Source: Candidatus Cloacimonadales bacterium (lineage in GTDB: Bacteria > Cloacimonadota > Cloacimonadia > Cloacimonadales > JAIOQZ01). Taken from it: a DNA stretch of 64,000 bases. Within the stretch, counting starts at the first letter, position 1. Every line of letters starts with the position of its first letter. The stretch is taken from assembly GCA_963665815.1 (NCBI GenBank), contig OY762463.1, positions 3,360,001 to 3,424,000 on the forward strand, given 5' to 3'. Below are positions 1,950 to 47,798 of the stretch, piece after piece. A model generated the notes under the pieces. It saw only the letters and a program-made list of their open reading frames with translations. It had not been told where the DNA came from and made no database searches. Made by a program: the position numbers and the translations under genes.

Positions 1950-3461
1950 CTATTTCATCAGAACGAGTTTTCTGGTTTCCGTATGATTGCCGGTTGTCAT
2001 TTTCACAAAATATACACCGGATGAGACATTATTACCTGAGTCAGTATCTCCATGCCAGATAACGCTTCTGTCGCCGGCATCAATATTGTCATTTACAAGA
2101 GTTTTAACTTTTTGACCTTTTATGTTGTATATGCTGATTTCTACTTGAGAGTTTTCTTTGATAGAATATTCAATTTTCGTTTCAGGATTGAATGGATTCG
2201 GGTAGATGCTTTGAATATTATTATCACAATAGTTAATTGTGCTCTGGTCGTTAGCAACATCGGTATATTCAAATATATAAACCGATCCGGCATATTGCTG
2301 GATACTGCTGTCTCCTCTACATCCTATAATAGCAGTATTGCCCTCTATATCTATTACTTCTCCAAAGAGTCCTTCCAAAGGGTGATCTTCTCCAACGAAT
2401 TTTTGTGCCAGAGTCCATAATGTGTCGGATTTCTGATAGAAATAAACTGAACCTGATCTATATGTAGGATAACTATCTACTTGTGACCCAATCAAAAGCA
2501 TGTCACCGGACAATTTCACGGAAATGCCGAAATTTTCACCTGCTTCACCATCATCAGGATAAATATAAGCCTGTTCCACCCAGTTATCTCCATTTTTTTT
2601 ATAGATGTATGCTGCACCTGAGTCAGTACCATTACTGCTGGCACACATTGCCCCCACAGCAATATAATCTCCATCCATTGACACCGAGAAACCAAATCCG
2701 TCACCTGAGGTTAAGTTTGAACCTACTAATTTCGTCTGCTCAGTCCAGACCCCTGAGTCATATTCGAATATATAGGCTGCTCCTGCATCTACTCCGGTAG
2801 AATTGTTATTATAAGCCCCTATAACCAGGCATTGATCATTACCGGCAAGACGGCAAAATTTATCATCATCTGCTCCGTCTGAAGGATACAATTTTGTTGA
2901 GAAGGTGAATACTGAATCTGCTCTGGAATAAACGTAAACTGATCCGGTCTTGTGATTATTTGTAGAATCCTGCTATGCTCCTACAAAAAGATTATTATCT
3001 GTCAGAAGTATAGATGCTCCGAACTCTCCTTCTTCAACTCCATCACTTGGAATTATTTTCTCAATTTCAGTCCAGGTGCTTCCGGATCTTCTAAATACAT
3101 AAACTGATCCTGACTCAATTCCATTTTCATTATCGTCAAATGCCCCGACTACAAGAAAGTTATCTTTTAATGATAAAGCATATCCAAAAATATTATCATC
3201 TGCACCATCAGAAGCAGTCAATATGGCTTCTTCAACCCATGTATCTCCCACAAGATGTAGTACATAAACAGCCCCTTGACCTTGCAGGTTGGGTTTACCT
3301 ACAGCTGCATAATCTCCGTCAATATCTACAGAATAACCGTAAATTCCCCAGGCTTGTCCATCCGAAGCTGATAGTTTCTGGAACTGTCTCCACTCTTCAG
3401 AGTACAAGTTTATTCCGATTAATAAAAAAAATGATATTACACAAAATAAAATGTTCTTCAT
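1950..3461 (-). pseudogene. Secreted FG-GAP repeat beta-propeller with FlgD-Ig/T9SS-like C-terminal domain, interrupted by one in-frame TAG at 2973-2975
   Basis: ORFs 2973..3461 and 1950..2891 share a frame, and the 27 codons between them continue the repeat (QDSTNNHKTGSVYVYSRADSVFTFSTK). Signal peptide, FGxSV..D...VGA...GAVYVF repeats, YPNPFNP C-terminal domain. Confidence 0.8.
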
Positions 3462-3797
3462 AGTATCTCTCCTTGTTTCATATCCTGATTGATAATTGCA
3501 ACAATTTTTTACGAATGATATTGTAATAACCGTTATAAGGAATTGTCAATATAATTAAATTCAGTGATTCATTTTCTTATTGATAAATTGTATCTTGAGT
3601 AAAATGTCTTTAATGAAAGTAGTTTCCGTATGAAGATATGCGATGTTTCGTGCAATTACATTCAAGAAATCCTTCATAGCTATAAAAGTACAGTTTATGT
3701 TTTCAAGGGTGATATTTTATTATTTAAAATGTAGAACCAATGCAGTTCTACCTATAATTAGTGCTTTTGTAAGTAGTATGCAGATAGATGATTTATC

Positions 3798-6230: not shown

Positions 6231-8480
6231 CTAACACTTTGACCAACCGCAACTGTGACACTTCAAACATCCTTCTGAATGTTCTACTACACTGCCGCAA
6301 TCAGGACAAGTTGTTCCCATTTTACCGGGTACAGACAGCATTTTTCTATTATCCGTATTAATTCTTATATCTGTAATTTTTTCATCACCCATAATTTTAA
6401 GGAAGTTCTCCAGTGCATAAGCCATACCATCTGCACAGGAAGTAATCATTTTTCCTTTATACCACATTGGCTGAGGACATCTTATGCCTTTAAGCTGACG
6501 AATGATTGATGTCACCTTAATATCTGAACGAAGCCCGAGCGAAGCCAGTCTTGCCACTGATTCCATCTGTGCAGATGCACATCCTCCGACTTTTCCTATC
6601 TGTGTAAATATCTCGCAAGCACCTCTTTCATCTCTGTTTATTGTAATGTAAAGGTGACCACAACCTGTTTCTACTCTCTGAGTAATACCTTGAGTTATCT
6701 CCGGCCTTGAACGTGGAGCAATACTTGGTTTGCCTTCTTCGGTTTCTTTTATTGTTTTACCTACATTCAGAACCTGATTGTCTCTGCTGCCATCTCTATA
6801 GACAGTCAGTCCTTTACAACCAAGCTGATATGCCAGTTCATAGGCTATTCTTATATCATTAACTTCTGCATCTCTGGTAAAGTTGATAGTCTTGGAAACC
6901 GCATTATCTGTGTATGCCTGGAATGCTGCCTGCATTTTAATATGCCATTCAGGGGAAATATCATGTGATGTAACGAATACCTGTTTGATTTCATCAGGGA
7001 TCTCGTCGATATGAGCAACAGAACCTGTTTCTGATACTTTTTCCATGAGTTCCTGAGAGTAGATTCCAGCATCTTTCACAGCTTTTTCGAAATGAGGGTT
7101 TATATATAGAAGTTTCTCTCCGTCCATGACATTTTTTACAAATACGAGTGAGAATTGCGGTTCGATTCCACTGGAAGTATTGGCTATCATACTGATTGTT
7201 CCGGTTGGAGCAATAGTTGTCACTGTCGCATTTCTCATTCCCTTTTTCTTAATCTGCTTGATTAGTTTATCCCAGTTCTTATTACATGTTTTACGATCCA
7301 GTGTACCTGTATCGAAAATACTACCTTTAAAATTCGGGAATGATTCTTTCTGTTCTGCCAGTTCCATGGATCTTACCTTTGCATGATAATCTATGAATTC
7401 CATAATTTCTGCAGCAAGCATAGTTGCTTCTTCTGAGTTATAAGGTATTTTCATTTTAAAAAGCAGATCTGCCCAGCCCATAACACCAAGTCCGATTTTT
7501 CTGTTAGATTTTACGGTTTCATCGATTTCCGGTAATGGGAAGTTAGATTTGTCAATAACATCATCAAGAAAATCAACACAAGTTTCTGTTACTTCTCTGA
7601 GGTTATTCCAATCTATTTTTTCATCATTATAGAAAGCTGAAAGATTGATTGATCCGAGGTTACATGCTTCGTTAGGTAAGAGAGGCTGTTCACCACATGG
7701 ATTTGTACTTTCTATTTCACCGATCTGTGGTGTCGGGTTATGTTTGTTGATTCTATCGAGGAAAATGATTCCCGGCTCACCGTTTTTATGTGCCATTTCA
7801 ACAATCAGTGAGAATATCTCTCTGGCATTGATATTATCCTGGACTTCTCCTGTATGCGGGGAGATTAATTCATAATCTGTATTTTGTGTTACTGCAGTCA
7901 TAAAGTCTTCAGTAAGTCCGACACTGATGTTAAAGTTTGTAAGTTCTTTAAGATCGTGTTTGCATTTGATGAAGTCTCTGATTTGAGGGTGTTGCACATT
8001 GAGGATAGCCATGTTAGCTCCTCGTCTTGTACCACCTTGTTTTACAGCATCGGTTGCAGCATTAAACACTTTCATAAATGATATTGGTCCGCTTGATACA
8101 CCATTGGTTGTTTTTACTCTGGCATTAGCTTCTCTGAGTTTACTGAAACTGAAACCTGTTCCTCCACCGCTTTTATGGATTAGTGCGGCATTTTTTATGG
8201 AAGTAAAAATACTTTCCATACTGTCTTCTACAGGAAGTACAAAACAGGCAGAAAGCTGCTGCAGGTCGTTTCCGGCATTCATAAGTGTAGGTGAGTTAGG
8301 CAGGAATTTACCGGAATCAAGAAGTTGATAATATTTCTCTGCTTTTTCAGAATCATCTCCGGCAATATTTCCGGATACACGAGTTAACAACTTTTCCCAA
8401 TCTTCTACCGGTTCACCTTGTTTGTTCTTTTTAAAATATCTTTTATTCAATACGACTTTCGCATTATCAGTTAAGTGCAT
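6231..8480 (-). CDS. nrdJ: Vitamin B12-dependent (class II) ribonucleotide reductase with C-terminal TSCPD/Zn-finger region
   Basis: PNSPTLMNAG, LSACFV, TNPCGEQPL, IAPTGTIS, VSKTIN, YRDGSR, and a terminal CPDC...CHSCGWSKC. Confidence 0.93.
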   Translation of the reverse strand: MHLTDNAKVVLNKRYFKKNKQGEPVEDWEKLLTRVSGNIAGDDSEKAEKYYQLLDSGKFLPNSPTLMNAGNDLQQLSACFVLPVEDSMESIFTSIKNAALIHKSGGGTGFSFSKLREANARVKTTNGVSSGPISFMKVFNAATDAVKQGGTRRGANMAILNVQHPQIRDFIKCKHDLKELTNFNISVGLTEDFMTAVTQNTDYELISPHTGEVQDNINAREIFSLIVEMAHKNGEPGIIFLDRINKHNPTPQIGEIESTNPCGEQPLLPNEACNLGSINLSAFYNDEKIDWNNLREVTETCVDFLDDVIDKSNFPLPEIDETVKSNRKIGLGVMGWADLLFKMKIPYNSEEATMLAAEIMEFIDYHAKVRSMELAEQKESFPNFKGSIFDTGTLDRKTCNKNWDKLIKQIKKKGMRNATVTTIAPTGTISMIANTSSGIEPQFSLVFVKNVMDGEKLLYINPHFEKAVKDAGIYSQELMEKVSETGSVAHIDEIPDEIKQVFVTSHDISPEWHIKMQAAFQAYTDNAVSKTINFTRDAEVNDIRIAYELAYQLGCKGLTVYRDGSRDNQVLNVGKTIKETEEGKPSIAPRSRPEITQGITQRVETGCGHLYITINRDERGACEIFTQIGKVGGCASAQMESVARLASLGLRSDIKVTSIIRQLKGIRCPQPMWYKGKMITSCADGMAYALENFLKIMGDEKITDIRINTDNRKMLSVPGKMGTTCPDCGSVVEHSEGCLKCHSCGWSKC

Positions 8481-8500
8481 ACTTTATTCCCTTTATATAA

Positions 8501-9946
8501 TTATTTTTCAATCCAGTATTGGTATAATTCCTCAGTAGAAAACATTCTACCGGAATTTTTCAATGAGTACTTTATTATGTCCCAGTAAAGAGATCCCCAT
8601 CCGGGGAAATCAATCCAGTCGAAAGTACGAAAATGCCAGAGCAGTGAAATATGTCCATTATGATTTTCAACTTTTTTTATGAGATTTTTAACTCTTTTTC
8701 TGGCAGTGCTTAAGCCAAGATTCATTGTTATCCTGGAGTAGAGAGAAACATCCATCACAATCAGAGGTATTTCCAGAATATGGAACGGACGATTTTCTTC
8801 CATATTGAAAGGATTAAACGGAAAAGAAATACCTGCTCTAAAGCCTATGGATTCCCAGAAACCAAGCGTAGAATCAAAGCGAATTCCGTTTTCTTCCATT
8901 ATCTTAAAACTGGTCTGGTAATCAAATGCAAGATTATGGAATCTGCATCCCTGAGCATTAAAACCTTTTCTTTTGAGCTCTTCCATGTCTTGTCTGAAGC
9001 ATTCAGCATCAAATGCCGATTCCGGTCTGGCATGAATTCCAACAAATCGCTCTTCCAGTAGTTCAGCAATTTCTCTAACGGTTTCATCGTCATTAAGATA
9101 GCCGTATCGAGGTTCGTCTTTATCCTTGTGTACTAATCCTGACAACAGGTTGACTGTTGAATCATTGTAAAGACGTGACTCATAGTTGAGGATAGATCTA
9201 TTTCGTTTATTCTCCTGCAAAAACATTTTTTTATGGAACAGGTGAAACCAGTATTTATACATGGCAGCAGCAGGATTTTTCAGTAATCTCTGTTTGTTAT
9301 GCTGCAGCACTGATTCAATCTGTTCTTTTGTCCAGAATTTCCAGTAATCCATGTCGTGGGACAGAGAAAGCCCGAATTTATGAAGACTTCCCCATGCATT
9401 GATATTAGTCATAGAGGGTTTTGTAATCTCAATAGATTTTCTGAGAATATTTATGTAGTAATCCACAACAGGTGTTTCTGTAAGGTTATTCTCAAACTGA
9501 AAAGATTTTTTGAAATCAAATCTGTTTTGCCCGTCAAGCTTTTCAAAATATTCCTGATAGCAGGAAAGAAAGTAAAAAGCTGAAGCTACAATATCTTTTC
9601 TTATAAAAGTTGTCTTTGTGGTGATATGAAATATCTCTCCCGGAAGAGAGAATAAAAACGGTATGTATTCATTATGAAAGAACTGCATAGAATAATGCAG
9701 ATGATCAGGGTGCTTTCTTTCAGTGAAAAAAGCCGCAGCATCATCTGAGTGATAGATCTTTACAGAAGCTTCCGTATCGGAATGTCTACCATAGTAAAGA
9801 TCTATCTTGGCAGATGAATATGTATAGTAAATCTTTGGCTGTAAATTAAGAATCTTACAAAATGTCCTGATTACGTATTCTGCTTTTGGAATAAACGCAG
9901 GTTCTACATTAATCAGAACTCTAAGCAGATTTTCATTTCTGTTCAT
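8501..9946 (-). CDS. Polysaccharide deacetylase-like (NodB-fold) protein
   Basis: SHDMD, GIH, RFH, DSTLG, GFRAG..FPF, LEIPLIVMD and LLWH motifs. Confidence 0.7.
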   Translation of the reverse strand: MNRNENLLRVLINVEPAFIPKAEYVIRTFCKILNLQPKIYYTYSSAKIDLYYGRHSDTEASVKIYHSDDAAAFFTERKHPDHLHYSMQFFHNEYIPFLFSLPGEIFHITTKTTFIRKDIVASAFYFLSCYQEYFEKLDGQNRFDFKKSFQFENNLTETPVVDYYINILRKSIEITKPSMTNINAWGSLHKFGLSLSHDMDYWKFWTKEQIESVLQHNKQRLLKNPAAAMYKYWFHLFHKKMFLQENKRNRSILNYESRLYNDSTVNLLSGLVHKDKDEPRYGYLNDDETVREIAELLEERFVGIHARPESAFDAECFRQDMEELKRKGFNAQGCRFHNLAFDYQTSFKIMEENGIRFDSTLGFWESIGFRAGISFPFNPFNMEENRPFHILEIPLIVMDVSLYSRITMNLGLSTARKRVKNLIKKVENHNGHISLLWHFRTFDWIDFPGWGSLYWDIIKYSLKNSGRMFSTEELYQYWIEK

Positions 9947-40054: not shown

Positions 40055-40351
40055 AATCCATATTAACCTTTGTAATACGAATAACAGGGATTCCTGTTAC
40101 CTTAGAAGAGATCAGCGAAATCATCCTCGTTTAAGGTTAGTTTAAAATGTACTTATTTTTTATCTCAGAGCACAATGACTGAGCCTATACTAAATCGACA
40201 ATGTTGATATAATCCTGAATAAGAATCAAACATATGTATGCCTTTAAGTGTCAAGAACCAGATCAAATCCATATCTTTTATCAGCAATATTTCCGTAAAT
40301 AAAACTTGCAGTTCAGTTAATATTTTGATCATATTGGTTTATGAGGCAAAA

Positions 40352-41716
40352 ATGAATAGAAATTATAAATATCACGAGGCAACAATAAGTATCTGCCCGG
40401 AGTGCAATAAAAGAGTCCCTGCAAAGATAATTTTCAGAGATAACAAAGTATATCTGAAGAAACACTGCGAGGAACACGGGATAACAGAAGAACTCTTCGA
40501 AGAGGATATTGAGTATTATCTGAATAAAAGGAAGTTCGATAAACCCGGTACTGTCTCAGAGATTCAGACTGAGACAAATAGAGGCTGTCCCTGGGATTGC
40601 GGACTGTGCCCTGAGCACGATCAGCATACCTGCATTGGTTTGGTGGAGATAACAGAAAACTGTGATCTGAATTGTCCGGTTTGTTATGCTAAGAGTGATT
40701 CAGGTAGTTTCATGTCATTGGATAGAATCAGTAAAATGATGGATTTCTTTGTGCAGAGTGAAGGTGGAGAAGCTGAGATTCTGCAGATCAGCGGGGGAGA
40801 ACCTACAACCCATCCGGATATTATCAAAATCATAGAGCTGGCTCGCAAGAAGAATATACGCTATGTGATGCTTAATACAAACGGACTGCGCATTGCTGAT
40901 GATCTTGAGTTTGTCTCAGATCTCAGCAAATTCGAAGGAGGATTTGAAGTGTATCTCCAGTTTGATGGTTTTGATCCTGAAATATACCGAACTTTACGTG
41001 GCAGAGATATTCTGGAACAAAAACTGAAAGCTGTGAAAGTGCTGACTATGTTCAAAATTCCCGTAACGCTTGTGGTAACTGTTCAGAAAGGGTTAAATGA
41101 TCACCAACTTGGTAAAATCATTGAGTTCGGTATGGAAACCGAAGGAGTGCGTGGAGTTAATCTTCAGCCTGTAGCATATTTTGGCAGATTTAACAAAGAG
41201 GCAACATCTGACAGGATTACTCTGTCCGGAGTGATTCACAGTATTGAGAACCAGCTTCCGGATGTATTTCAAAAGGGTGATATAGTGCCGCTTCCCTGCA
41301 ATGTTGAACGGGTAGGTGTGACATATCTCAGCAAAGTAAAAGGTAAGTTTGTACCTGTTACCAGAAACGTGAAGATAGAAGACTATCTACCGCTTATAGA
41401 TAACACCTTTGCATTTGATGCGGACAGAATCATAAAGAAGAGGGAAAAAGAATCTGTGACTTCAATTGAAGGAACCTGCAGTTGTATGAACTTCCTGAAA
41501 GATATGAAGTCAATTATTCCTGTAAGTTTTGCATTCAAGTCAAAGAAAGAAAAGCTCAAGTATATTAATAACAATACATTCCGAATAAGTGTGACCTCTT
41601 TTGTAGATAAATACAATTTTGATCTGAAATCTATGCAGAAAGAATGCGTTCATATATTAACGGAAGATTTAAGAAGAATTCCATTTTCTGCGTATAACAT
41701 GTTTTACAGGGATTAA
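40352..41716 (+). CDS. Radical SAM enzyme of the MJ0619/tetraether synthase (Tes, GDGT-MAS)-like family
   Basis: N-terminal CPEC...CEEH, then GCPWDCGLC.EH.QHTC, radical SAM CDLNCPVC, SGGEPT.HP, NTNG, YLQFDG, ECVH...IPFSAYN. Start placed at the ATG after GAGG. Confidence 0.85.
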   Translation: MNRNYKYHEATISICPECNKRVPAKIIFRDNKVYLKKHCEEHGITEELFEEDIEYYLNKRKFDKPGTVSEIQTETNRGCPWDCGLCPEHDQHTCIGLVEITENCDLNCPVCYAKSDSGSFMSLDRISKMMDFFVQSEGGEAEILQISGGEPTTHPDIIKIIELARKKNIRYVMLNTNGLRIADDLEFVSDLSKFEGGFEVYLQFDGFDPEIYRTLRGRDILEQKLKAVKVLTMFKIPVTLVVTVQKGLNDHQLGKIIEFGMETEGVRGVNLQPVAYFGRFNKEATSDRITLSGVIHSIENQLPDVFQKGDIVPLPCNVERVGVTYLSKVKGKFVPVTRNVKIEDYLPLIDNTFAFDADRIIKKREKESVTSIEGTCSCMNFLKDMKSIIPVSFAFKSKKEKLKYINNNTFRISVTSFVDKYNFDLKSMQKECVHILTEDLRRIPFSAYNMFYRD

Positions 41717-41718
41717 GA

Positions 41719-42300
41719 ATGTTTTTCAGAATAGCAAATTTATCTGTTGGATTGAGCGTTATGGCACTCTCAATATCCATAATCTATAACTTTATGAACA
41801 GCAGAGAACAGAAGGTGAATAAGGAAAAGAAGAGCGTTGTCGAAACAGGATCGATGTCCGCTTTTGCAGTTGCCATGTATTTTATTCTGATGTTCGGCAT
41901 AGGCAGATACAAGATAGAGAACCCTCTGCTTAACGTATCCATTGCTGTGGGCATGCTGTTTGTGCATGCCGGTTGTGTTGCAAATATTGTTGGCAGATTG
42001 AATCTTGGCAAAAACTGGGGTAACCACATAAGGATATATGATGATCATTCTTTTTCCAGAAAGGGAATGTACCGAATTGTCAGGCACCCGTTATATTCAT
42101 CGATAATCCTGATGTTCTTTGGTGCAGGCTTGATCTACTCTAACTATCTGTGTTTTTTAGCTACCACAGTAATTTTTATCCCTGCTATGTACTACAGGGC
42201 TAAACAGGAAGAAAATTTATTGAAAGAGAAGTTTTCTGAATACAGGCTGTATCAGAAAGAAGTTGGAATGCTGTTCCCAAAGGTAAGATTATGGAAATAA
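41719..42300 (+). CDS. Isoprenylcysteine carboxyl methyltransferase (ICMT/PEMT) family membrane protein
   Basis: LGKNW...H....GMYRIVRHPLY and R...EE..L...F..Y..Y...V..LFP motifs. Confidence 0.88.
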   Translation: MFFRIANLSVGLSVMALSISIIYNFMNSREQKVNKEKKSVVETGSMSAFAVAMYFILMFGIGRYKIENPLLNVSIAVGMLFVHAGCVANIVGRLNLGKNWGNHIRIYDDHSFSRKGMYRIVRHPLYSSIILMFFGAGLIYSNYLCFLATTVIFIPAMYYRAKQEENLLKEKFSEYRLYQKEVGMLFPKVRLWK

Positions 42301-42713
42301 ACAAGTATGCTTTAAAATTCTGCAAATTCGGTGTAGCTATAATGCTCTGGTTAGCTTTTATCCTGAAGGTGAAACTGTTAATAAGTGTCGTGTTCGTTAT
42401 TTTTGTGCTTTCAGCTTTGCTGAAGATTAGCAGAGCTCCTATGATTCTGCTGTATAATTACACTGTTGGTTTACTTATAAAATCACCGAAAGTTATAGTC
42501 AATGCTGAGGCAATGAGATTTGTTCATACTCTTGCATCATGTTTCAGCGGGATATGTCTTCTACTTGTCAATTTGAACTTGCGTTTTGCCTGGAGTGTTG
42601 TGTTGATTTTTGCCATCATGAAGACTGTCAGTTCACTGGGATTTTGTCCGGGAGAAAAGATTTACTCCTGTGTAAAAGGTGGTTGCTGCTCTGTAAGGAA
42701 ATCGGATGATTGA
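42291..42713 (+). CDS. DUF4395-like membrane protein
   Basis: Four hydrophobic segments, A.RF, GFCPGEKIY (GFCxGxxxY), Cys-rich tail. Confidence 0.65.
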   Translation: MEINKYALKFCKFGVAIMLWLAFILKVKLLISVVFVIFVLSALLKISRAPMILLYNYTVGLLIKSPKVIVNAEAMRFVHTLASCFSGICLLLVNLNLRFAWSVVLIFAIMKTVSSLGFCPGEKIYSCVKGGCCSVRKSDD

Positions 42714-43479
42714 CAGCCACAACCATCCTGAAAACTGGGGAATAAAACCTTATCTGCTTGAAATCGGTAAATTCAGGCTGGGCTCTTATGAGGTGTTTGT
42801 TTCACTGGGCATAATTGTCGGATTTATTGTATACAAGCATCTTTCTGCACAAGACAAGAAGATGAGCGATAACTCTTTTATTGTGCTGATTGCAGCGTTT
42901 ATTGGAGGAGTACTGGGAGCAAAACTACCCATCTGGATTATGCATTTCCGGGAGATAGTTCAGGCATTACCGGATATAAGACCAATTCTGGCAGGCAGGA
43001 CTATTACCGGAGGATTGGTTGGCGGAACTCTCGCAGTAATTTTTACAAAACGCAAACTGGGGATTAAGGAGAAGAAAGGCAATTTCTTTGCTCCGGCTAT
43101 AGCAATCGGTGTGGCAATAGGGAGAGTGGGCTGTCTTTTACGAGGCTGCTGCTATGGTCATGAGACATGTCTTCCTTGGGGAATTGAGCTTGGTGATGGT
43201 GTTATGCGTCATCCAACCCAGATTTATGAGATTATCTTTATGCTGATAATGTTTGCAGTACTGATGAAGCTTCGTAAGAAAGCAAAACCCGGATTTCTTT
43301 TCTATCTGCTTATGACCTCATATTTCTCATTCAGATTTATTGAGGAATATCTGCGGGAGAGTGTCTACTATTACGGTTTCACATTATTCCAGTATATATC
43401 TGTCGGAGCATTGCTGTTTATTAATGTAAAGTATATTCTTGAAAAGAAGAGGAGAGAGTGTGTCAAAGAAAATGAGTGA
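42706..43479 (+). CDS. Prolipoprotein diacylglyceryl transferase (Lgt) family paralog
   Basis: GGLVGG, GRVGCLLRGCCYG, PWG, RHPTQIYE, YFSFRFIEEYLR. Confidence 0.88.
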   Translation: MIDSHNHPENWGIKPYLLEIGKFRLGSYEVFVSLGIIVGFIVYKHLSAQDKKMSDNSFIVLIAAFIGGVLGAKLPIWIMHFREIVQALPDIRPILAGRTITGGLVGGTLAVIFTKRKLGIKEKKGNFFAPAIAIGVAIGRVGCLLRGCCYGHETCLPWGIELGDGVMRHPTQIYEIIFMLIMFAVLMKLRKKAKPGFLFYLLMTSYFSFRFIEEYLRESVYYYGFTLFQYISVGALLFINVKYILEKKRRECVKENE

Positions 43480-43711
43480 AGGCAAAGAGTTCAAGATTGG
43501 GTCATTCATAGGAATTATGGCACTATTTATCATGATGATGGTTTCAATATCAGGTTTTCTGATATGGTTAATATTATATGATATCGTTCTGATATTTGTC
43601 GGACTTCTGATCTATAAATCCGGAAAGATGAAGATGTTTTTTTCATATTGCCTGTTCGTCATACCGGGATTTATTTTCCACGGATCATGCTTCGGCGGAG
43701 TGAATTTTTAG
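43460..43711 (+). CDS. Small 3-TM protein with C-terminal GSC motif (paralog 1)
   Basis: GAGGAG RBS before the GTG at 43460. Ends ...FIFHGSCFGGVNF. Confidence 0.7.
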   Translation: MSKKMSEGKEFKIGSFIGIMALFIMMMVSISGFLIWLILYDIVLIFVGLLIYKSGKMKMFFSYCLFVIPGFIFHGSCFGGVNF

Positions 43712-43761
43712 TGAATTGATTTTACAATAACTGATTATAAAATGTATAAGGAGAAAATATT

Positions 43762-44046
43762 ATGAACTCAAAAAGAAAACAGTTTTTTAAGGGTCTACTT
43801 ATTGGATTGCTGTTATTGATAACTTTTTTTGTTATATTCATAATGTTTGGTTTTCCAAATGGCTTTGATGATGGTTCCGCTTCCTATCCACTTATAATTA
43901 TTATGGGCTTAGTTTATGCATCATTATGTGTATTCTTCTGGCTTCGAGGAAAAAATCGTGCGCTGTTTTATGGATTTATTTCAGCAGTTGCTGTGTTTGC
44001 TTTGATTTTTGGAGCTTGTACTTTCACCTGGATATACACATTGTAG
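43762..44046 (+). CDS. Small 3-TM protein with C-terminal GAC motif (paralog 2)
   Basis: AAGGAG RBS. Ends ...ALIFGACTFTWIYTL. Confidence 0.8.
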   Translation: MNSKRKQFFKGLLIGLLLLITFFVIFIMFGFPNGFDDGSASYPLIIIMGLVYASLCVFFWLRGKNRALFYGFISAVAVFALIFGACTFTWIYTL

Positions 44047-44070
44047 GATTAAGAACCCAAAGGAGTTTAT

Positions 44071-44394
44071 ATGGATAAACAACAGGATTTTTCTTTTAAA
44101 GAAAACAAAACCGACAGAAAATTCAAAGATGTCATTATTGGTGCATTAATCGGAGTTGTGCTGATTGCATTAATATTTATCATTGCAATACCGCAAACAT
44201 ACTCATCAGTAGTATCAAATGTTTTTTTTGCATACACAATTTATGCTTTAGCAATATTAGTAGTTCTGGGTATTGTTTATATTAGTATTAGAAAGAAGCA
44301 GTATTTTTTGCTTTTAGGTTTGATACTAAGTCCATTACTAGCTCTGATTCTGGTAGGTGCATGTTTTGTTGCTGTCATGGGTAGTGCGGGATAA
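44071..44394 (+). CDS. Small 3-TM protein with C-terminal GAC motif (paralog 3)
   Basis: AAGGAG RBS. Ends ...LILVGACFVAVMGSAG. Confidence 0.8.
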   Translation: MDKQQDFSFKENKTDRKFKDVIIGALIGVVLIALIFIIAIPQTYSSVVSNVFFAYTIYALAILVVLGIVYISIRKKQYFLLLGLILSPLLALILVGACFVAVMGSAG

Positions 44395-44434: not shown

Positions 44435-45913
44435 CTAAACAAGATTATCAGTATCTTCTTTTAATTTCCTTCTGTTGACCTCCGGGTAAAGCTTGGCTGC
44501 ACATTCCGGGCAGATACCATGTGAAAACTGAACATCAGGCAGTCTTTCAGTGATGTAATCTGCAGGTTTCATCCATGGTTTGCCATCTTTGCTTTTGTCT
44601 TTGATAGAGTGGCAGCTTGCACACATTGTTATGAGGTTTCCTAATGCGTGACTTTGCTGTATGTTTGTTCTCATTATTTCCAGAAATTCCTTCTGTCTTG
44701 TTATATCCCGAATAATACAAAAATATGCTTTGAGACCATTAAAGTCCCCAACGTTTTCACTGATATGAGTAATAATTATACTGCCGTCTTTTTTTCTTAA
44801 CTCTACTTCATATTGATAGTTTAAATTGCCTGATCTTTCATTCTCCTCAATAATCTTTCGCACCTTTTCTTTTTCCTTTTCAGGAAGGAATTTCTTTCCG
44901 TCAATTTTTAACAAATTATCTACTGAATATCCCAATAATATAGCTGATGCATCATTTGCAAATATAAATTTCCCGTTCTGTCTGATAACTATAGCTTCAT
45001 TGGATCTTTCCATCATCCATCTATATTTCTTTTCCTGTTCAAAAGTCCTTTTCATATACATGAATTTGTCTCTTTTGTAAATAGTTGAAACAATGAACAG
45101 GATCAACAGGATTAACAGCGATATTGTTATGATCTGCTCTTTCAGAAAAATTTGATAATCAGAGAACATATTTTTCTCGGAAGAAGAGAATTTCAGATAT
45201 ATTTTTGAATGTTCTGATTTTATTAAATACGATACCAGACCGTTATTAAGGGACAAAAAGCTGCCTATATTATTATGTTTATTTAAATCAGATAATTTAA
45301 GTATTTCAAGTTGAACTGTTGGTTCTGATATTTCTTTAAGTACTTTTTCATTATTGTAATAAATGACATCATGTCCGAGAAGTTCTCCATTTTTCTTTAT
45401 TGGACTGATTACATACATAATAGAAAGCTTATCAGTATTGAAATAGTACAATGTCGTAGATGTACAACAGGTATCAACTTTTGCCGGATGTAACATGTAT
45501 ATGTCTTTGTCACCTGTTTCTACAAGAACGTTGTTTTTAATCTCTCGCCGGGCATAAACAAAGCATTCCAGGGCTTCAACTCCTTCTCTATATTTAGGGA
45601 ATGTATAATCTCTAAGTTGTTCAAAACTGAGTTCACCAAGGTAAAAATCAGCTATTTTATTCCTGATCATGGATCTGCTGCTCATACTCCTGGATCCCTG
45701 GATATACTGAGATACTGTATTGTCGAAAATAACAGCTTTTGTTTTCAGCTTTGAAATATACTCTTTTATTATCTGTTCCCTGATAACCTCTTGAGATGGT
45801 TTAAAAAGAAACAGGTAGTAAGTCATGAAAATCATACCGGATAAAATAATGATAATCAAAGCTATAATGTATTTATTGGGTCTCAAATCGTAGAAATCTG
45901 AAAAAAAACTCAT
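44435..45913 (-). CDS. Membrane sensor: TM, extracytoplasmic domain, TM, PAS, then a CxxC...SHGICxxC domain
   Basis: Two TM segments, PAS (..RKKDGS..IRDIT), terminal MCASCHSIK...W...FSHGICPEC. Confidence 0.8.
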   Translation of the reverse strand: MSFFSDFYDLRPNKYIIALIIIILSGMIFMTYYLFLFKPSQEVIREQIIKEYISKLKTKAVIFDNTVSQYIQGSRSMSSRSMIRNKIADFYLGELSFEQLRDYTFPKYREGVEALECFVYARREIKNNVLVETGDKDIYMLHPAKVDTCCTSTTLYYFNTDKLSIMYVISPIKKNGELLGHDVIYYNNEKVLKEISEPTVQLEILKLSDLNKHNNIGSFLSLNNGLVSYLIKSEHSKIYLKFSSSEKNMFSDYQIFLKEQIITISLLILLILFIVSTIYKRDKFMYMKRTFEQEKKYRWMMERSNEAIVIRQNGKFIFANDASAILLGYSVDNLLKIDGKKFLPEKEKEKVRKIIEENERSGNLNYQYEVELRKKDGSIIITHISENVGDFNGLKAYFCIIRDITRQKEFLEIMRTNIQQSHALGNLITMCASCHSIKDKSKDGKPWMKPADYITERLPDVQFSHGICPECAAKLYPEVNRRKLKEDTDNLV

Positions 45914-46097: not shown

Positions 46098-46568
46098 ATG
46101 AAATATCTGTGCTCTTTAATAGCTGTTGAAAATATCGAACGCTCAAGAAAGTTCTATGAAAGTATTATGGGAATGAAGGTTGAAGAAGATTATGGAGAGA
46201 ATGTTGTTTTTGAGGATAGTTTTTCCATTCATGACAGAAAGCACTTCCGTGAGTTGATCAACGGTAAAGAAATCCTGCACAAATCAAACAGTTTTGAGCT
46301 ATACTTTGAGGAAAATAAAGTAAACGACCTTTTCAATAAGCTGAAAGACAATCATGTTGAGTTTATTCATGAGCCGAGAGAACAGCCCTGGAGACAACTT
46401 GTCATGAGATTTTACGATCCGGATGGTCATATAATAGAAGTGGGGGAGTCATTGGAATATCTGGCTGTACGGCTTCACAAGGAAGGATTGGATATAGATG
46501 AGATTTGTCGAATCACATATTTCGACAGCGCAAAAGTAGCAGCATTAATAAGAGAAAATAACACCTGA
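46098..46568 (+). CDS. VOC/glyoxalase family protein
   Basis: V.NIERSRKFY, ELYFE, EQPWRQ..RFYDPDGHIIEVGE. Confidence 0.9.
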   Translation: MKYLCSLIAVENIERSRKFYESIMGMKVEEDYGENVVFEDSFSIHDRKHFRELINGKEILHKSNSFELYFEENKVNDLFNKLKDNHVEFIHEPREQPWRQLVMRFYDPDGHIIEVGESLEYLAVRLHKEGLDIDEICRITYFDSAKVAALIRENNT

Positions 46569-46649: not shown

Positions 46650-47798
46650 GTGAATTATCCACAATATGAGAATAACAGTATCATTAATCTTGTGAGTTCT
46701 CTGGTAAAGTCAATGGGCGGAAGCCTGCACACAGGTGAACTGAAACATTTTGATGTTGAAACCCTGAGGAAGAAGAAGAATATTGTATTCATTATTCTGG
46801 ATGGAATGGGATACAATCAGCTTAAAGCTCTTGAAAAAGCTGAGTTTCTGAATAGCAATATAAAGCAAAGAATCACTTCTGTTTTCCCGACAACTACTGC
46901 AGCAGCAATTACAAGTTTTGTCAGTGGTATTGCACCTCTGGAACATGCCGTAACCGGCTGGTACATGTACATGAGAGAACTTGGAGCAGCTTCTCTTGCC
47001 TTACCATTCAGTCCAAGATATGTGTTCGAAGAATACAATATTCCGGGAGATGTAGTATACAATTTCAACAGTGTTTTCCCACAGATTGAAAGAACTTCTT
47101 ATTATATCAGTCCCGAAAAAATTATTAATTCGGTATTTTCATCAATTGCCTGTGCTGATTCTGTGAAGATGGGATATAATGATCTGGATGAGTTTTTCGA
47201 TAATATTCATAAAGCGGTTGATATATCTGATGAGGATAAATTTGTTTATGCTTACTGGTCATATTATGATAAACTATGCCACCAGACAGGAACCGAATCA
47301 GAAGAATCTACTTCTCATCTGCTTGATCTCAACAATAGAATAGAAAATCTGGTTAATAGTTTTGAAGGTAAAGATTACCAGATAATTGTTACTGCTGATC
47401 ATGGGCATATTAATGTTGAGCAGAAAAAAAAGATTTTTCTTTCTGACCATCCTGAGCTGCATAAGTGCCTTATCCTGCCTTTGTGCGGGGAACCAAGAGC
47501 TCCTTACTTCTATGTGAAATCTGATTGTGTTGAAAAATTCAAAAGCTATGTTGATGAAAATTTTAGTGATCGAATTGATTTGATATCCAGAAAATCTGCA
47601 ATAGAATCAGGTATTTTCGGAATTGCCGAAAGGAATCCTAAATTTGATGACAGGGTTGGCGACTATATAGGATTATTCAAGGATAATTCAATTTTATGTG
47701 ATGCTGTTTATGGTGAGCAGATACCTGACTTTATAGGCTATCATGGGGGATTATCCGAAAATGAAATGTTTGTTCCGTTAATCACAATAAAAAATTAA
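46650..47798 (+). CDS. Alkaline phosphatase superfamily (nucleotide pyrophosphatase/phosphodiesterase) protein
   Basis: ILDGMG, SVFPTTT, YDKLCH, TADHGH, GYHGGLS..EM.VP. Confidence 0.88.
   Translation: MNYPQYENNSIINLVSSLVKSMGGSLHTGELKHFDVETLRKKKNIVFIILDGMGYNQLKALEKAEFLNSNIKQRITSVFPTTTAAAITSFVSGIAPLEHAVTGWYMYMRELGAASLALPFSPRYVFEEYNIPGDVVYNFNSVFPQIERTSYYISPEKIINSVFSSIACADSVKMGYNDLDEFFDNIHKAVDISDEDKFVYAYWSYYDKLCHQTGTESEESTSHLLDLNNRIENLVNSFEGKDYQIIVTADHGHINVEQKKKIFLSDHPELHKCLILPLCGEPRAPYFYVKSDCVEKFKSYVDENFSDRIDLISRKSAIESGIFGIAERNPKFDDRVGDYIGLFKDNSILCDAVYGEQIPDFIGYHGGLSENEMFVPLITIKN

Follow-up and report, generated by a model that had tools for sequence, protein, structure and literature searches.

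What are the three small open reading frames (ORFs) that follow an Lgt-family gene in a Candidatus Cloacimonadales genome, and what is the role of the Cys residue near the end of each of them? The DNA analysed here, referred to as the window, is a stretch of 64,000 nucleotides (contig OY762463.1 of assembly GCA_963665815.1, positions 3,360,001 to 3,424,000, forward strand). On its + strand, a tight operon encodes a radical S-adenosylmethionine (SAM) enzyme, an ICMT/PEMT methyltransferase, a DUF4395 protein, an Lgt-family protein and the three small ORFs. Comparison with other genomes points to a module with three parts: an Lgt-like enzyme, a Tes/TrsS-like radical SAM enzyme and a Cys-tailed miniprotein. 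At the level of sequence, the miniprotein family, its conserved Cys, the synteny, the gene fusions and the altered active site of the Lgt paralog are regarded as established, and the chemistry is put forward as a proposal. The miniproteins may be dedicated, uncleaved acceptors of a lipid that is modified by the radical SAM enzyme. This reading is preferred tentatively, with somewhat less than even confidence.

The three small ORFs lie on the + strand and encode predicted three-helix proteins. ORF1 begins at 43460 (GTG) or 43472 (ATG) and ends at 43711; it has the loop KSGKMK and ends in FHGSC followed by FGGVNF. ORF2 (43762..44046) has the loop RGKNR and ends in IFGAC followed by TFTWIYTL. ORF3 (44071..44394) has the loop RKKQ and ends in LVGAC followed by FVAVMGSAG. 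The three helices, the basic loops and the G-[A/S]-C ends with 6–9 further residues had been reported in a preliminary description of this DNA, and all are present. The ATG alternative of ORF1 overlaps the Lgt stop codon, and ORF1 begins within or at the end of the Lgt gene. Strong Shine-Dalgarno sequences precede ORF2 (AAGGAG, 8 nt before the ATG) and ORF3 (AAAGGAG). Four of the 215 six-frame window ORFs of at least 50 amino acids end in G-[GAS]-C plus 5–13 residues: ORF1, ORF2, ORF3 and the DUF4395 gene of the operon. A basic stretch 12–26 residues ahead of this terminal motif is found in the three small ORFs only. Compared with a same-genus genome (L003), the ratio of nonsynonymous to synonymous substitution rates is 0.25–0.27 for ORF2, 0.14 for ORF3 and 0.07 for the Lgt gene, and ORF2 and ORF3 are judged from these alignments to be under purifying selection.

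The small ORFs had also been described as tandem paralogs, and this stands to a different degree for each of them. Pairwise BLASTP between ORF1, ORF2 and ORF3 gives no significant match (E = 29, 0.83 and 0.099). Hidden Markov models (HMMs) of the family, trained solely on homologs from other organisms with the window ORFs excluded, were run over the 215 window ORFs in three versions. ORF3 is the top match (E = 7.9e-13, and 1.2e-5 with another model). ORF2 ranks second in all three models (E = 0.0067, 0.0054 and 4.9e-7). ORF1 ranks third in the cyanobacterial model only (E = 0.0056) and has E = 0.21 in the combined model. In profile comparisons with hhalign, the ORF2 group matches the ORF3 subfamily with 92% probability (32 columns, E = 6e-7) and the ORF1 group does so with 84% probability (18 columns); ORF1 matches the cyanobacterial profile with a probability of only 12%. 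Membership of the ORF1 slot is further supported because the sister-genome gene in this slot ends in LLLFGACFWRF. On the HMM, hhalign and sister-genome evidence, ORF3 is therefore classed as a certain and clear member of the family, ORF2 as a probable member, and ORF1 as a plausible, divergent member. Two domain assignments are dismissed: ORF2 as TIGR04086 (18.9 bits, under the cut-off of 30) and ORF3 as ABC2_membrane_5 (16 bits, under the cut-off of 25).

The same-genus genome contains five small ORFs behind its Lgt gene (L003:6767-8301), compared with three in the window. ORF2 is duplicated there, and one copy (7357-7671) has a different, Cys-less C-terminus. ORF1 and the gene in the same slot of the sister genome are 33% identical, whereas the Lgt genes are 96% identical. 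The small-ORF array thus grows, shrinks and diverges quickly.

The family of ORF3 is unnamed and, by prediction, is made up of membrane proteins of about 100 residues with three helices and no Pfam domain. A profile search of 5.8 billion proteins returns 233 homologs at E <= 0.01 among the 8000 candidates scored, and Pfam domains are found on none of the 120 homologs listed. An exhaustive HMMER search of 1.84 billion representatives returns 1372 clusters at E <= 0.001, with 348 at E <= 1e-10. A Foldseek search of the ORF3 model against the PDB gives 0 matches at E <= 0.001, and the ESM Atlas holds only unnamed 'hypothetical protein' clusters for the family, at 0.91. The family profile is dominated by cyanobacterial sequences, and many of the loci come from metagenome-assembled genomes (MAGs). 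Members are also present in cultured cyanobacteria, for example Crinalium epipsammum PCC 9333 and Calothrix sp. NIES-2100, so experiments are feasible. Within the host genome of the window, the family is found at this locus only.

The Cys is kept in 119 of the 120 listed homologs. In the cyanobacterial loci retrieved with the small protein, 86 of 88 ORFs contain it when inspected by eye; a strict regular expression recovers 72 of the 88, and the 14 that it misses have F, C, S, V or G ahead of the Cys. About 129 of 139 further representatives carry the Cys, eight carry another residue and two are truncated or odd. In a 52-sequence alignment it is the sole invariant column. In a Magasanikiibacteria genome, a small protein that resembles the family is encoded ahead of the operon (L006:3106-3552); it shares the N-terminus and the basic loop, has no Cys and ends in ...FFLAGLIIQAIIFLFTGQTYL.

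The module is found in several phyla. Searches with the Lgt paralog return loci in Omnitrophica, Magasanikiibacteria and Hormoscilla MAGs and on a contig labelled Nanoarchaeota, and a second scan adds a Saccharibacteria MAG and another Omnitrophota MAG. All seven loci of the window subtype (the window, L003–L006, L079 and L081) have the gene order radical SAM, methyltransferase, DUF4395, Lgt, small protein, and in each of the seven a family member lies behind the Lgt-like gene. The search with the small protein returns 63 cyanobacterial loci, in which neighbours were identified by tblastn at E <= 1e-5 and Lgt-like genes were counted within 8 kb. A radical SAM gene is present in 58 of the 63 and usually ends about 50 bases upstream of the small gene. 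An Lgt-like gene is present in 52 of the 63, or 52 of the 58 evaluable; in five of the 11 loci that lack one, the contig stops after less than 1.3 kb of upstream sequence. ICMT-like and DUF4395 genes are detected in none of the 63 loci at this threshold, and ORF clustering recovers no further real protein family in more than 20 of them. Because of these neighbour counts, the constant core of the module is taken to be the Lgt-like enzyme, the Tes/TrsS-like radical SAM enzyme and the Cys miniprotein. The miniprotein family is tied more tightly to the radical SAM gene (58/63) than to the Lgt paralog (52/63). Cyanobacterial loci contain one family copy in 41 cases, two in 16 and three in 5.

These results bear on the central claim of the preliminary description, that the small proteins are dedicated substrates of the adjacent Lgt paralog. 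The linkage to the paralog is conserved, in 7/7 subtype loci and 52/63 cyanobacterial loci. Homologs do not generally lose the Cys, do not place it on the cytoplasmic face by prediction (see below), and do not mostly occur away from an Lgt neighbour. The tightest partner, the radical SAM enzyme, had not been considered, and the paralog lacks two residues, H103 and E151, so that standard Lgt chemistry by this paralog is an assumption.

The small ORFs could instead encode mere membrane-protein passengers of the cassette, such as immunity or stabilising factors, whose Cys has no direct chemical role. The pairwise similarity of ORF1–3, which is not significant, and the weak family membership of ORF1 would fit such bystanders. 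The near-invariant Cys and the synteny do not: both are kept across Cyanobacteria, Omnitrophota, Patescibacteria, Cloacimonadota and one archaeal contig. A bystander role is very improbable.

The cassette looks horizontally mobile, as judged from its distribution. Among 60 same-order relatives, a close copy of the paralog is present only in the same-genus genome. Four other same-order relatives have matches at 29–31% identity, which is as high as the identity of the paralog to a housekeeping Lgt. On the Nanoarchaeota-labelled contig (L004:6001-6768, with neighbours at 7143-8527), the cassette lies by Nop5/Nop56- and fibrillarin-like genes, as identified by eye from their translations. Other contigs of the same MAG encode a canonical Lgt and an Lsp. 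This is either an archaeon that carries Lgt-family genes or a mixed bin.

In the AlphaFold2 model of ORF3 (mean predicted local distance difference test score, pLDDT, 74), helices span residues 16-39, 47-74 and 78-106. Cys98 is within the third helix, and the tail after the Cys is modelled as a continuation of this helix with the highest pLDDT of the model (85-87). In the family alignment, the columns of loop 2 are 40–90% K/R, and acidic residues are nearly absent from them. The hydrophobic stretch that follows spans 21 columns and has the Cys at position 16, with about 15 hydrophobic columns ahead of it. Because the K/R-rich loop 2 is read as inside under the positive-inside rule, helix 3 is predicted to run from inside to outside, with the Cys in its outer-leaflet part. 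The outer-face Cys that the preliminary description expected agrees with this prediction.

The layout of a type II signal peptide, which had been recognised at the C-terminus of the three proteins, is present in part. As in a lipoprotein acceptor, a basic stretch of the miniprotein leads into about 15 hydrophobic residues of a helix that is predicted to run from inside to outside, and these are followed by a small residue and the Cys. Unlike in lipoproteins, the acceptor segment is the third, C-terminal helix of a polytopic protein and not an N-terminal signal peptide, and the Cys is followed by 6–13 hydrophobic residues (6, 8 and 9 in the window) and no mature domain. The strict lipobox is also missing. 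Against the consensus [L/V/I]-3 [A/S/T/V/I]-2 [G/A/S]-1 C+1, as given in the abstract of PMC12462473, ORF3 (V-G-A-C), ORF2 (F-G-A-C) and ORF1 (H-G-S-C) fit at -1, do not fit at -2, where all have Gly, and fit at -3 in ORF3 only.

Cleavage before the Cys had been proposed to release tiny lipopeptides from a precursor array. On that account, S-lipidation would be followed by a cut at the Cys by signal peptidase II or a similar enzyme, which would free CFGGVNF, CTFTWIYTL and CFVAVMGSAG. Multi-copy arrays of precursors of ribosomally synthesized and post-translationally modified peptides (RiPPs) have a conserved leader and a variable core. The miniproteins resemble them in several ways: tandem copies lie beside modifying enzymes that include a radical SAM enzyme, a conserved part before the Cys is followed by a tail that varies in sequence and length, copies with differing tails share a single locus, and the copy number shifts. 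The tail is 6–13 residues in the cyanobacterial locus ORFs and 0–20, mostly 5–13, in the unfiltered representatives. Position -1 is G, A or S in 92 of 127 representatives, and each of five genomes checked has one Lsp gene. Unlike in RiPP arrays, the putative leader is a three-helix membrane segment of 70–90 residues, for which we know of no precedent, and the radical SAM enzyme belongs with the lipid-acting Tes enzymes and not with the SPASM peptide maturases. The window operon genes encode no peptidase or exporter, and none is found among the neighbour families shared by 6 or more of the 63 cyanobacterial loci. F, Y, P, T, V and L are also seen at -1; F occupies it throughout one cyanobacterial paralog clade and Y in L046 and L079. 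None of the window ORFs fits the strict lipobox at both -3 and -2 (PMC12462473, abstract), and the hydrophobic tail is modelled within helix 3. The release of lipopeptides draws no support from these observations and is considered improbable.

The radical SAM enzyme of the window (40349..41716, +; PF04055, 79.7 bits) belongs to the Tes/TrsS/HMPTM type and carries a zinc ribbon at its N-terminus (PF23545, 64.6 bits). Its start was set at MNRNYKYHE to match its homologs; the longest ORF begins further upstream, at 40238. Like Tes/GDGT-MAS (NF045702) and TrsS (NF045646), it combines the zinc ribbon with a radical SAM core, in which the CxxxCxxC motif is present as CDLNCPVC, and a second Cys cluster motif downstream of the zinc ribbon. 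These two models are its best NCBIfam matches, but it falls below both curated thresholds: 361.4 bits with TrsS NF045646 (cut-off 490) and 314.5 bits with Tes NF045702 (cut-off 450). The Tes match covers only profile positions 2-313 of 486, the first two thirds. The homologs from Hormoscilla and Omnitrophica are likewise under both the Tes and the TrsS cut-offs. In contrast to Tes and TrsS, its partners are an Lgt-like enzyme and Cys miniproteins and not lipid-synthesis genes. It is the only gene of its type in the genome, and it has the same operon position in L004, L005, L006, L079 and L081. The link between the two enzymes is physical in some genomes, since five of eight longer Lgt-like matches are natural fusions of an Lgt-like domain, a zinc ribbon and a radical SAM domain (P0260-P0263 and P0265). 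A conserved HWN-x-QCCG motif is found at the junction of four Lgt-like::radical SAM fusions. Small-protein fusions were not found among the 8000 candidates scored, which is weak evidence.

The Lgt-family paralog (42706..43479, +) matches PF01790 with 115.9 bits, above the cut-off of 24.9, and PDB entry 5azb with E = 7.8e-12. It falls below the equivalog cut-offs (TIGR00544, 88.5 vs 118.9 bits; NF000778, 113.6 vs 334 bits). The housekeeping Lgt of the genome is encoded elsewhere and scores 247.7 bits with PF01790. Each of the five genomes checked has one canonical Lgt (214–272 bits) and one paralog (94–133 bits), in addition to one Lsp gene. Because every checked genome retains a canonical Lgt, the paralog is an addition and not a replacement.

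The paralog belongs to the same fold family as Escherichia coli Lgt (PDB 5AZB/5AZC) and retains the positions R143, G154, Y235 and R239 and the motif RHPxQxYE. In helix 6 (Y235, R239 and E243 in E. coli), Y206 and R210 of the paralog are invariant, and the 243 position is E214 or Asp. Other active-site positions are altered. H103 is replaced by T in the window paralog (T-GGL) and by Val in the cyanobacterial paralogs (V-G[GA]L), compared with H-GGA in the housekeeping Lgt. Cys takes the place of N146 in 37 of 37 paralogs. At E151, the window paralog has Cys and the cyanobacterial paralogs have Leu. The signature G142-RLGNFINGELW-G154 is not preserved, since R143 and G154 are kept and N146 and E151 are replaced. 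The periplasmic head domain is much shorter than in E. coli Lgt. The paralog also has a radical SAM partner, with which it is fused in some cases, and in this too it differs from canonical Lgt. In E. coli Lgt, activity is lost in the variants H103A/N/Q/R/Y, E151A/Q and R143A/E/K, the head group of phosphatidylglycerol is held at its glycerol by E151, and N146 belongs to the catalytic hydrogen-bond network (PMC4728403). Canonical diacylglyceryl transfer by the paralog is not assured, because H103 and E151 are replaced, and its donor or its mechanism may therefore differ.

The Cys at the N146 position also suggests a different role for the miniproteins. They could be stoichiometric subunits or adaptors of an Lgt-like/radical SAM complex that modifies lipids, with a free modified membrane lipid as the product. 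The miniprotein Cys would then pair with the Cys of the enzyme, as a thiol/disulfide pair, a covalent relay or a metal site. A subunit role is suggested by the invariance of the enzyme Cys in all 37 paralogs, at a position of the catalytic network. Helices 2 and 3 also point to it, since they are conserved very strongly in 38 cyanobacterial sequences, with Q, Y, P, K, G, V, I, A, G and C unchanged throughout. The existence of Cys-less family members is in line with this role as well. A free lipid product would agree with the idea, published in PMC8941075, that bacterial Tes homologs make membrane-spanning lipids. A copy number of 1 to 5 per enzyme set and the fast divergence of the ORF1 slot between near-identical genomes are unusual for a fixed subunit, and among the candidates scored the small protein is never fused to one of the enzymes, on the weak evidence noted above. 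A subunit role is the strongest alternative to the preferred reading but appears somewhat unlikely.

In the preferred reading, in which the miniproteins are uncleaved lipid acceptors, the miniprotein would insert with its N-terminus inside and its C-terminus outside, as its charge distribution suggests, and the invariant Cys would come to lie in the segment of helix 3 within the outer leaflet, where a lipobox Cys arrives after a type II signal peptide. The Lgt-like enzyme would alkylate the Cys thiol with a glycerolipid, as its homology and synteny suggest. The donor is probably other than ordinary phosphatidylglycerol, because the head-group-binding E151, as well as H103, is replaced. By analogy with Tes chemistry, the radical SAM enzyme would act on the hydrocarbon tails of the lipid at the cytoplasmic face, before or after the transfer. 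In the window subtype, the ICMT/PEMT-like methyltransferase and the DUF4395 protein may add a step at the cytoplasmic face. The miniprotein would remain whole, and the product would be a covalently lipid-tagged miniprotein with no released peptide. The number of copies per enzyme set varies as expected for a substrate, with three in the window, five in the same-genus genome and 1–3 in cyanobacteria. Lgt recognises just such a layout, in which a basic loop, a helix, a small residue and a Cys follow one another from inside to outside. Synteny, variable copy number and fast divergence fit dedicated acceptors, and the uncleaved-acceptor reading is therefore favoured.

Several observations weigh against the uncleaved-acceptor reading. 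Cys-less members make up about 6% of the representatives and 2 of the 88 locus ORFs, and the copy upstream of the L006 operon (3106-3552) lacks the Cys as well. In cyanobacteria, helices 2 and 3 (QLLYVIP, KGVIIGAVITALLNGGC) are conserved beyond what a passive acceptor needs, which suits a subunit. The cyanobacterial small gene lies directly behind the radical SAM gene and not the Lgt-like gene. Since the paralog lacks H103 and E151, it may transfer no lipid to a thiol at all.

The remaining genes of the operon are conserved in the window subtype. The ICMT/PEMT-family membrane methyltransferase (41719..42300, +) matches PF04140 (42.2 bits), PF04191 (40.9 bits) and NF040696 (79.8 bits, under the cut-off of 160). 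Eukaryotic CaaX processing consists of prenylation, cleavage by Rce1 or Ste24, and methylation by ICMT. A similar sequence could apply here, in which the Cys is lipidated, the residues beyond it are trimmed, and the ICMT-family enzyme methylates the new carboxyl group. As in CaaX processing, the Cys is close to the C-terminus, an enzyme of a thiol-lipidating type is present, and an ICMT-family membrane methyltransferase is constant, here throughout the window subtype. The Hormoscilla locus has an LCM-family methyltransferase (PF04072) instead. The Lgt-like enzyme is unrelated to prenyltransferases, and 6–13 residues follow the Cys, compared with 3 in CaaX proteins. No CaaX-type protease is found among the 11 window proteins scanned or in the Hormoscilla cassette. 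The C-terminus is predicted to be extracytoplasmic, while SAM-dependent methylation would need the cytoplasmic face. A methyltransferase gene is absent from the cyanobacterial version of the module, with none in the 63 loci apart from the one LCM case. Processing of the CaaX type is highly doubtful. The LCM-family gene (L007:6726-7556, Hormoscilla) lies between the Lgt-like and radical SAM genes and is unique among the 63 cyanobacterial loci.

A membrane-spanning product that is tied to the protein can also be envisaged, as an extension of lipid transfer to the miniprotein. The Lgt-like enzyme would link a glycerolipid to the outer-leaflet Cys of the miniprotein through a thioether, the Tes-like enzyme would then join the tail of this lipid to a second lipid, from the inner leaflet, and in the window subtype the ICMT/PEMT-like enzyme would cap the head group of the second lipid at the cytoplasmic face. 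This combination of steps is rather unlikely.

The DUF4395 membrane protein (42291..42713, +; PF14340, 46.3 bits) has a Cys-rich, basic C-terminal tail (C..C..GGCC). The tail has the form C-P-x4-Y-x-C-x3-GGCC-x-basic and is kept in L004, L005, L006, L079 and L081; it could be a metal or acylation site. DUF4395 is mentioned in the literature, according to a search listing. Just upstream of the Lgt-like gene, a 126-amino-acid membrane protein with a C-x-CC motif is encoded in Hormoscilla (L007:5538-5918) and in 12 of the 63 cyanobacterial loci; it has no match in Pfam or NCBIfam. There is no excess of promoter-like sites (14 vs 15.5 expected from shuffles) or terminator-like sites (2 vs 2.8 expected from shuffles), and the base composition of the cassette (GC 0.33–0.42) is not distinct from that of its flanks.

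Downstream of the small ORFs lies a convergent gene on the - strand (44435-45913), whose product is a membrane protein with a PAS domain and, at its C-terminus, a four-Cys motif (CASCHS...CPEC). The corresponding region of the sister genome is broken into two shorter ORFs (L003:8342-8581 and 8763-9122). Further along the window, a gene of the glyoxalase/bleomycin-resistance fold (46098-46568) precedes a gene for an alkaline-phosphatase/PglZ superfamily protein (46650-47798; PF01663, 70 bits; PF08665, 36 bits). The sister genome keeps both of these genes.

The Lgt-like/radical SAM/Cys-miniprotein module is widespread, and no published description of it was found. The literature search returned no publication on the module or on any connection between Lgt paralogs and Tes or radical SAM enzymes; Haft & Tolstoy 2025 was outside this search and may bear on novelty. 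A 2026 review lists TrsS, citing Haft & Tolstoy 2025, where TrsS was named. The words 'lipoprotein' and 'diacylglyceryl' are absent from a 2026 review of lipid-modifying radical SAM enzymes. The 2022 Tes paper proposes synthesis of branched glycerol dialkyl glycerol tetraethers (brGDGTs) for 456 bacterial homologs, and its available part does not mention gene neighbours (PMC8941075).

If the Cys is lipidated, the module would be a second Lgt-type route of protein lipidation with private acceptors. This route would act on a C-terminal membrane helix and not on an N-terminal signal peptide, and it would be combined with radical reactions at the lipid tails. An archaeal contig would then also carry an enzyme of the Lgt family, although the abstract of PMC12462473 states that no archaeal homologs of Lgt are known. 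Many bacterial 'Tes homologs' would gain a concrete role, where so far only brGDGT synthesis has been suggested (PMC8941075). If a spanning lipid tied to the protein is in fact made, many of these homologs would act on protein-bound lipid and would not produce free brGDGTs.

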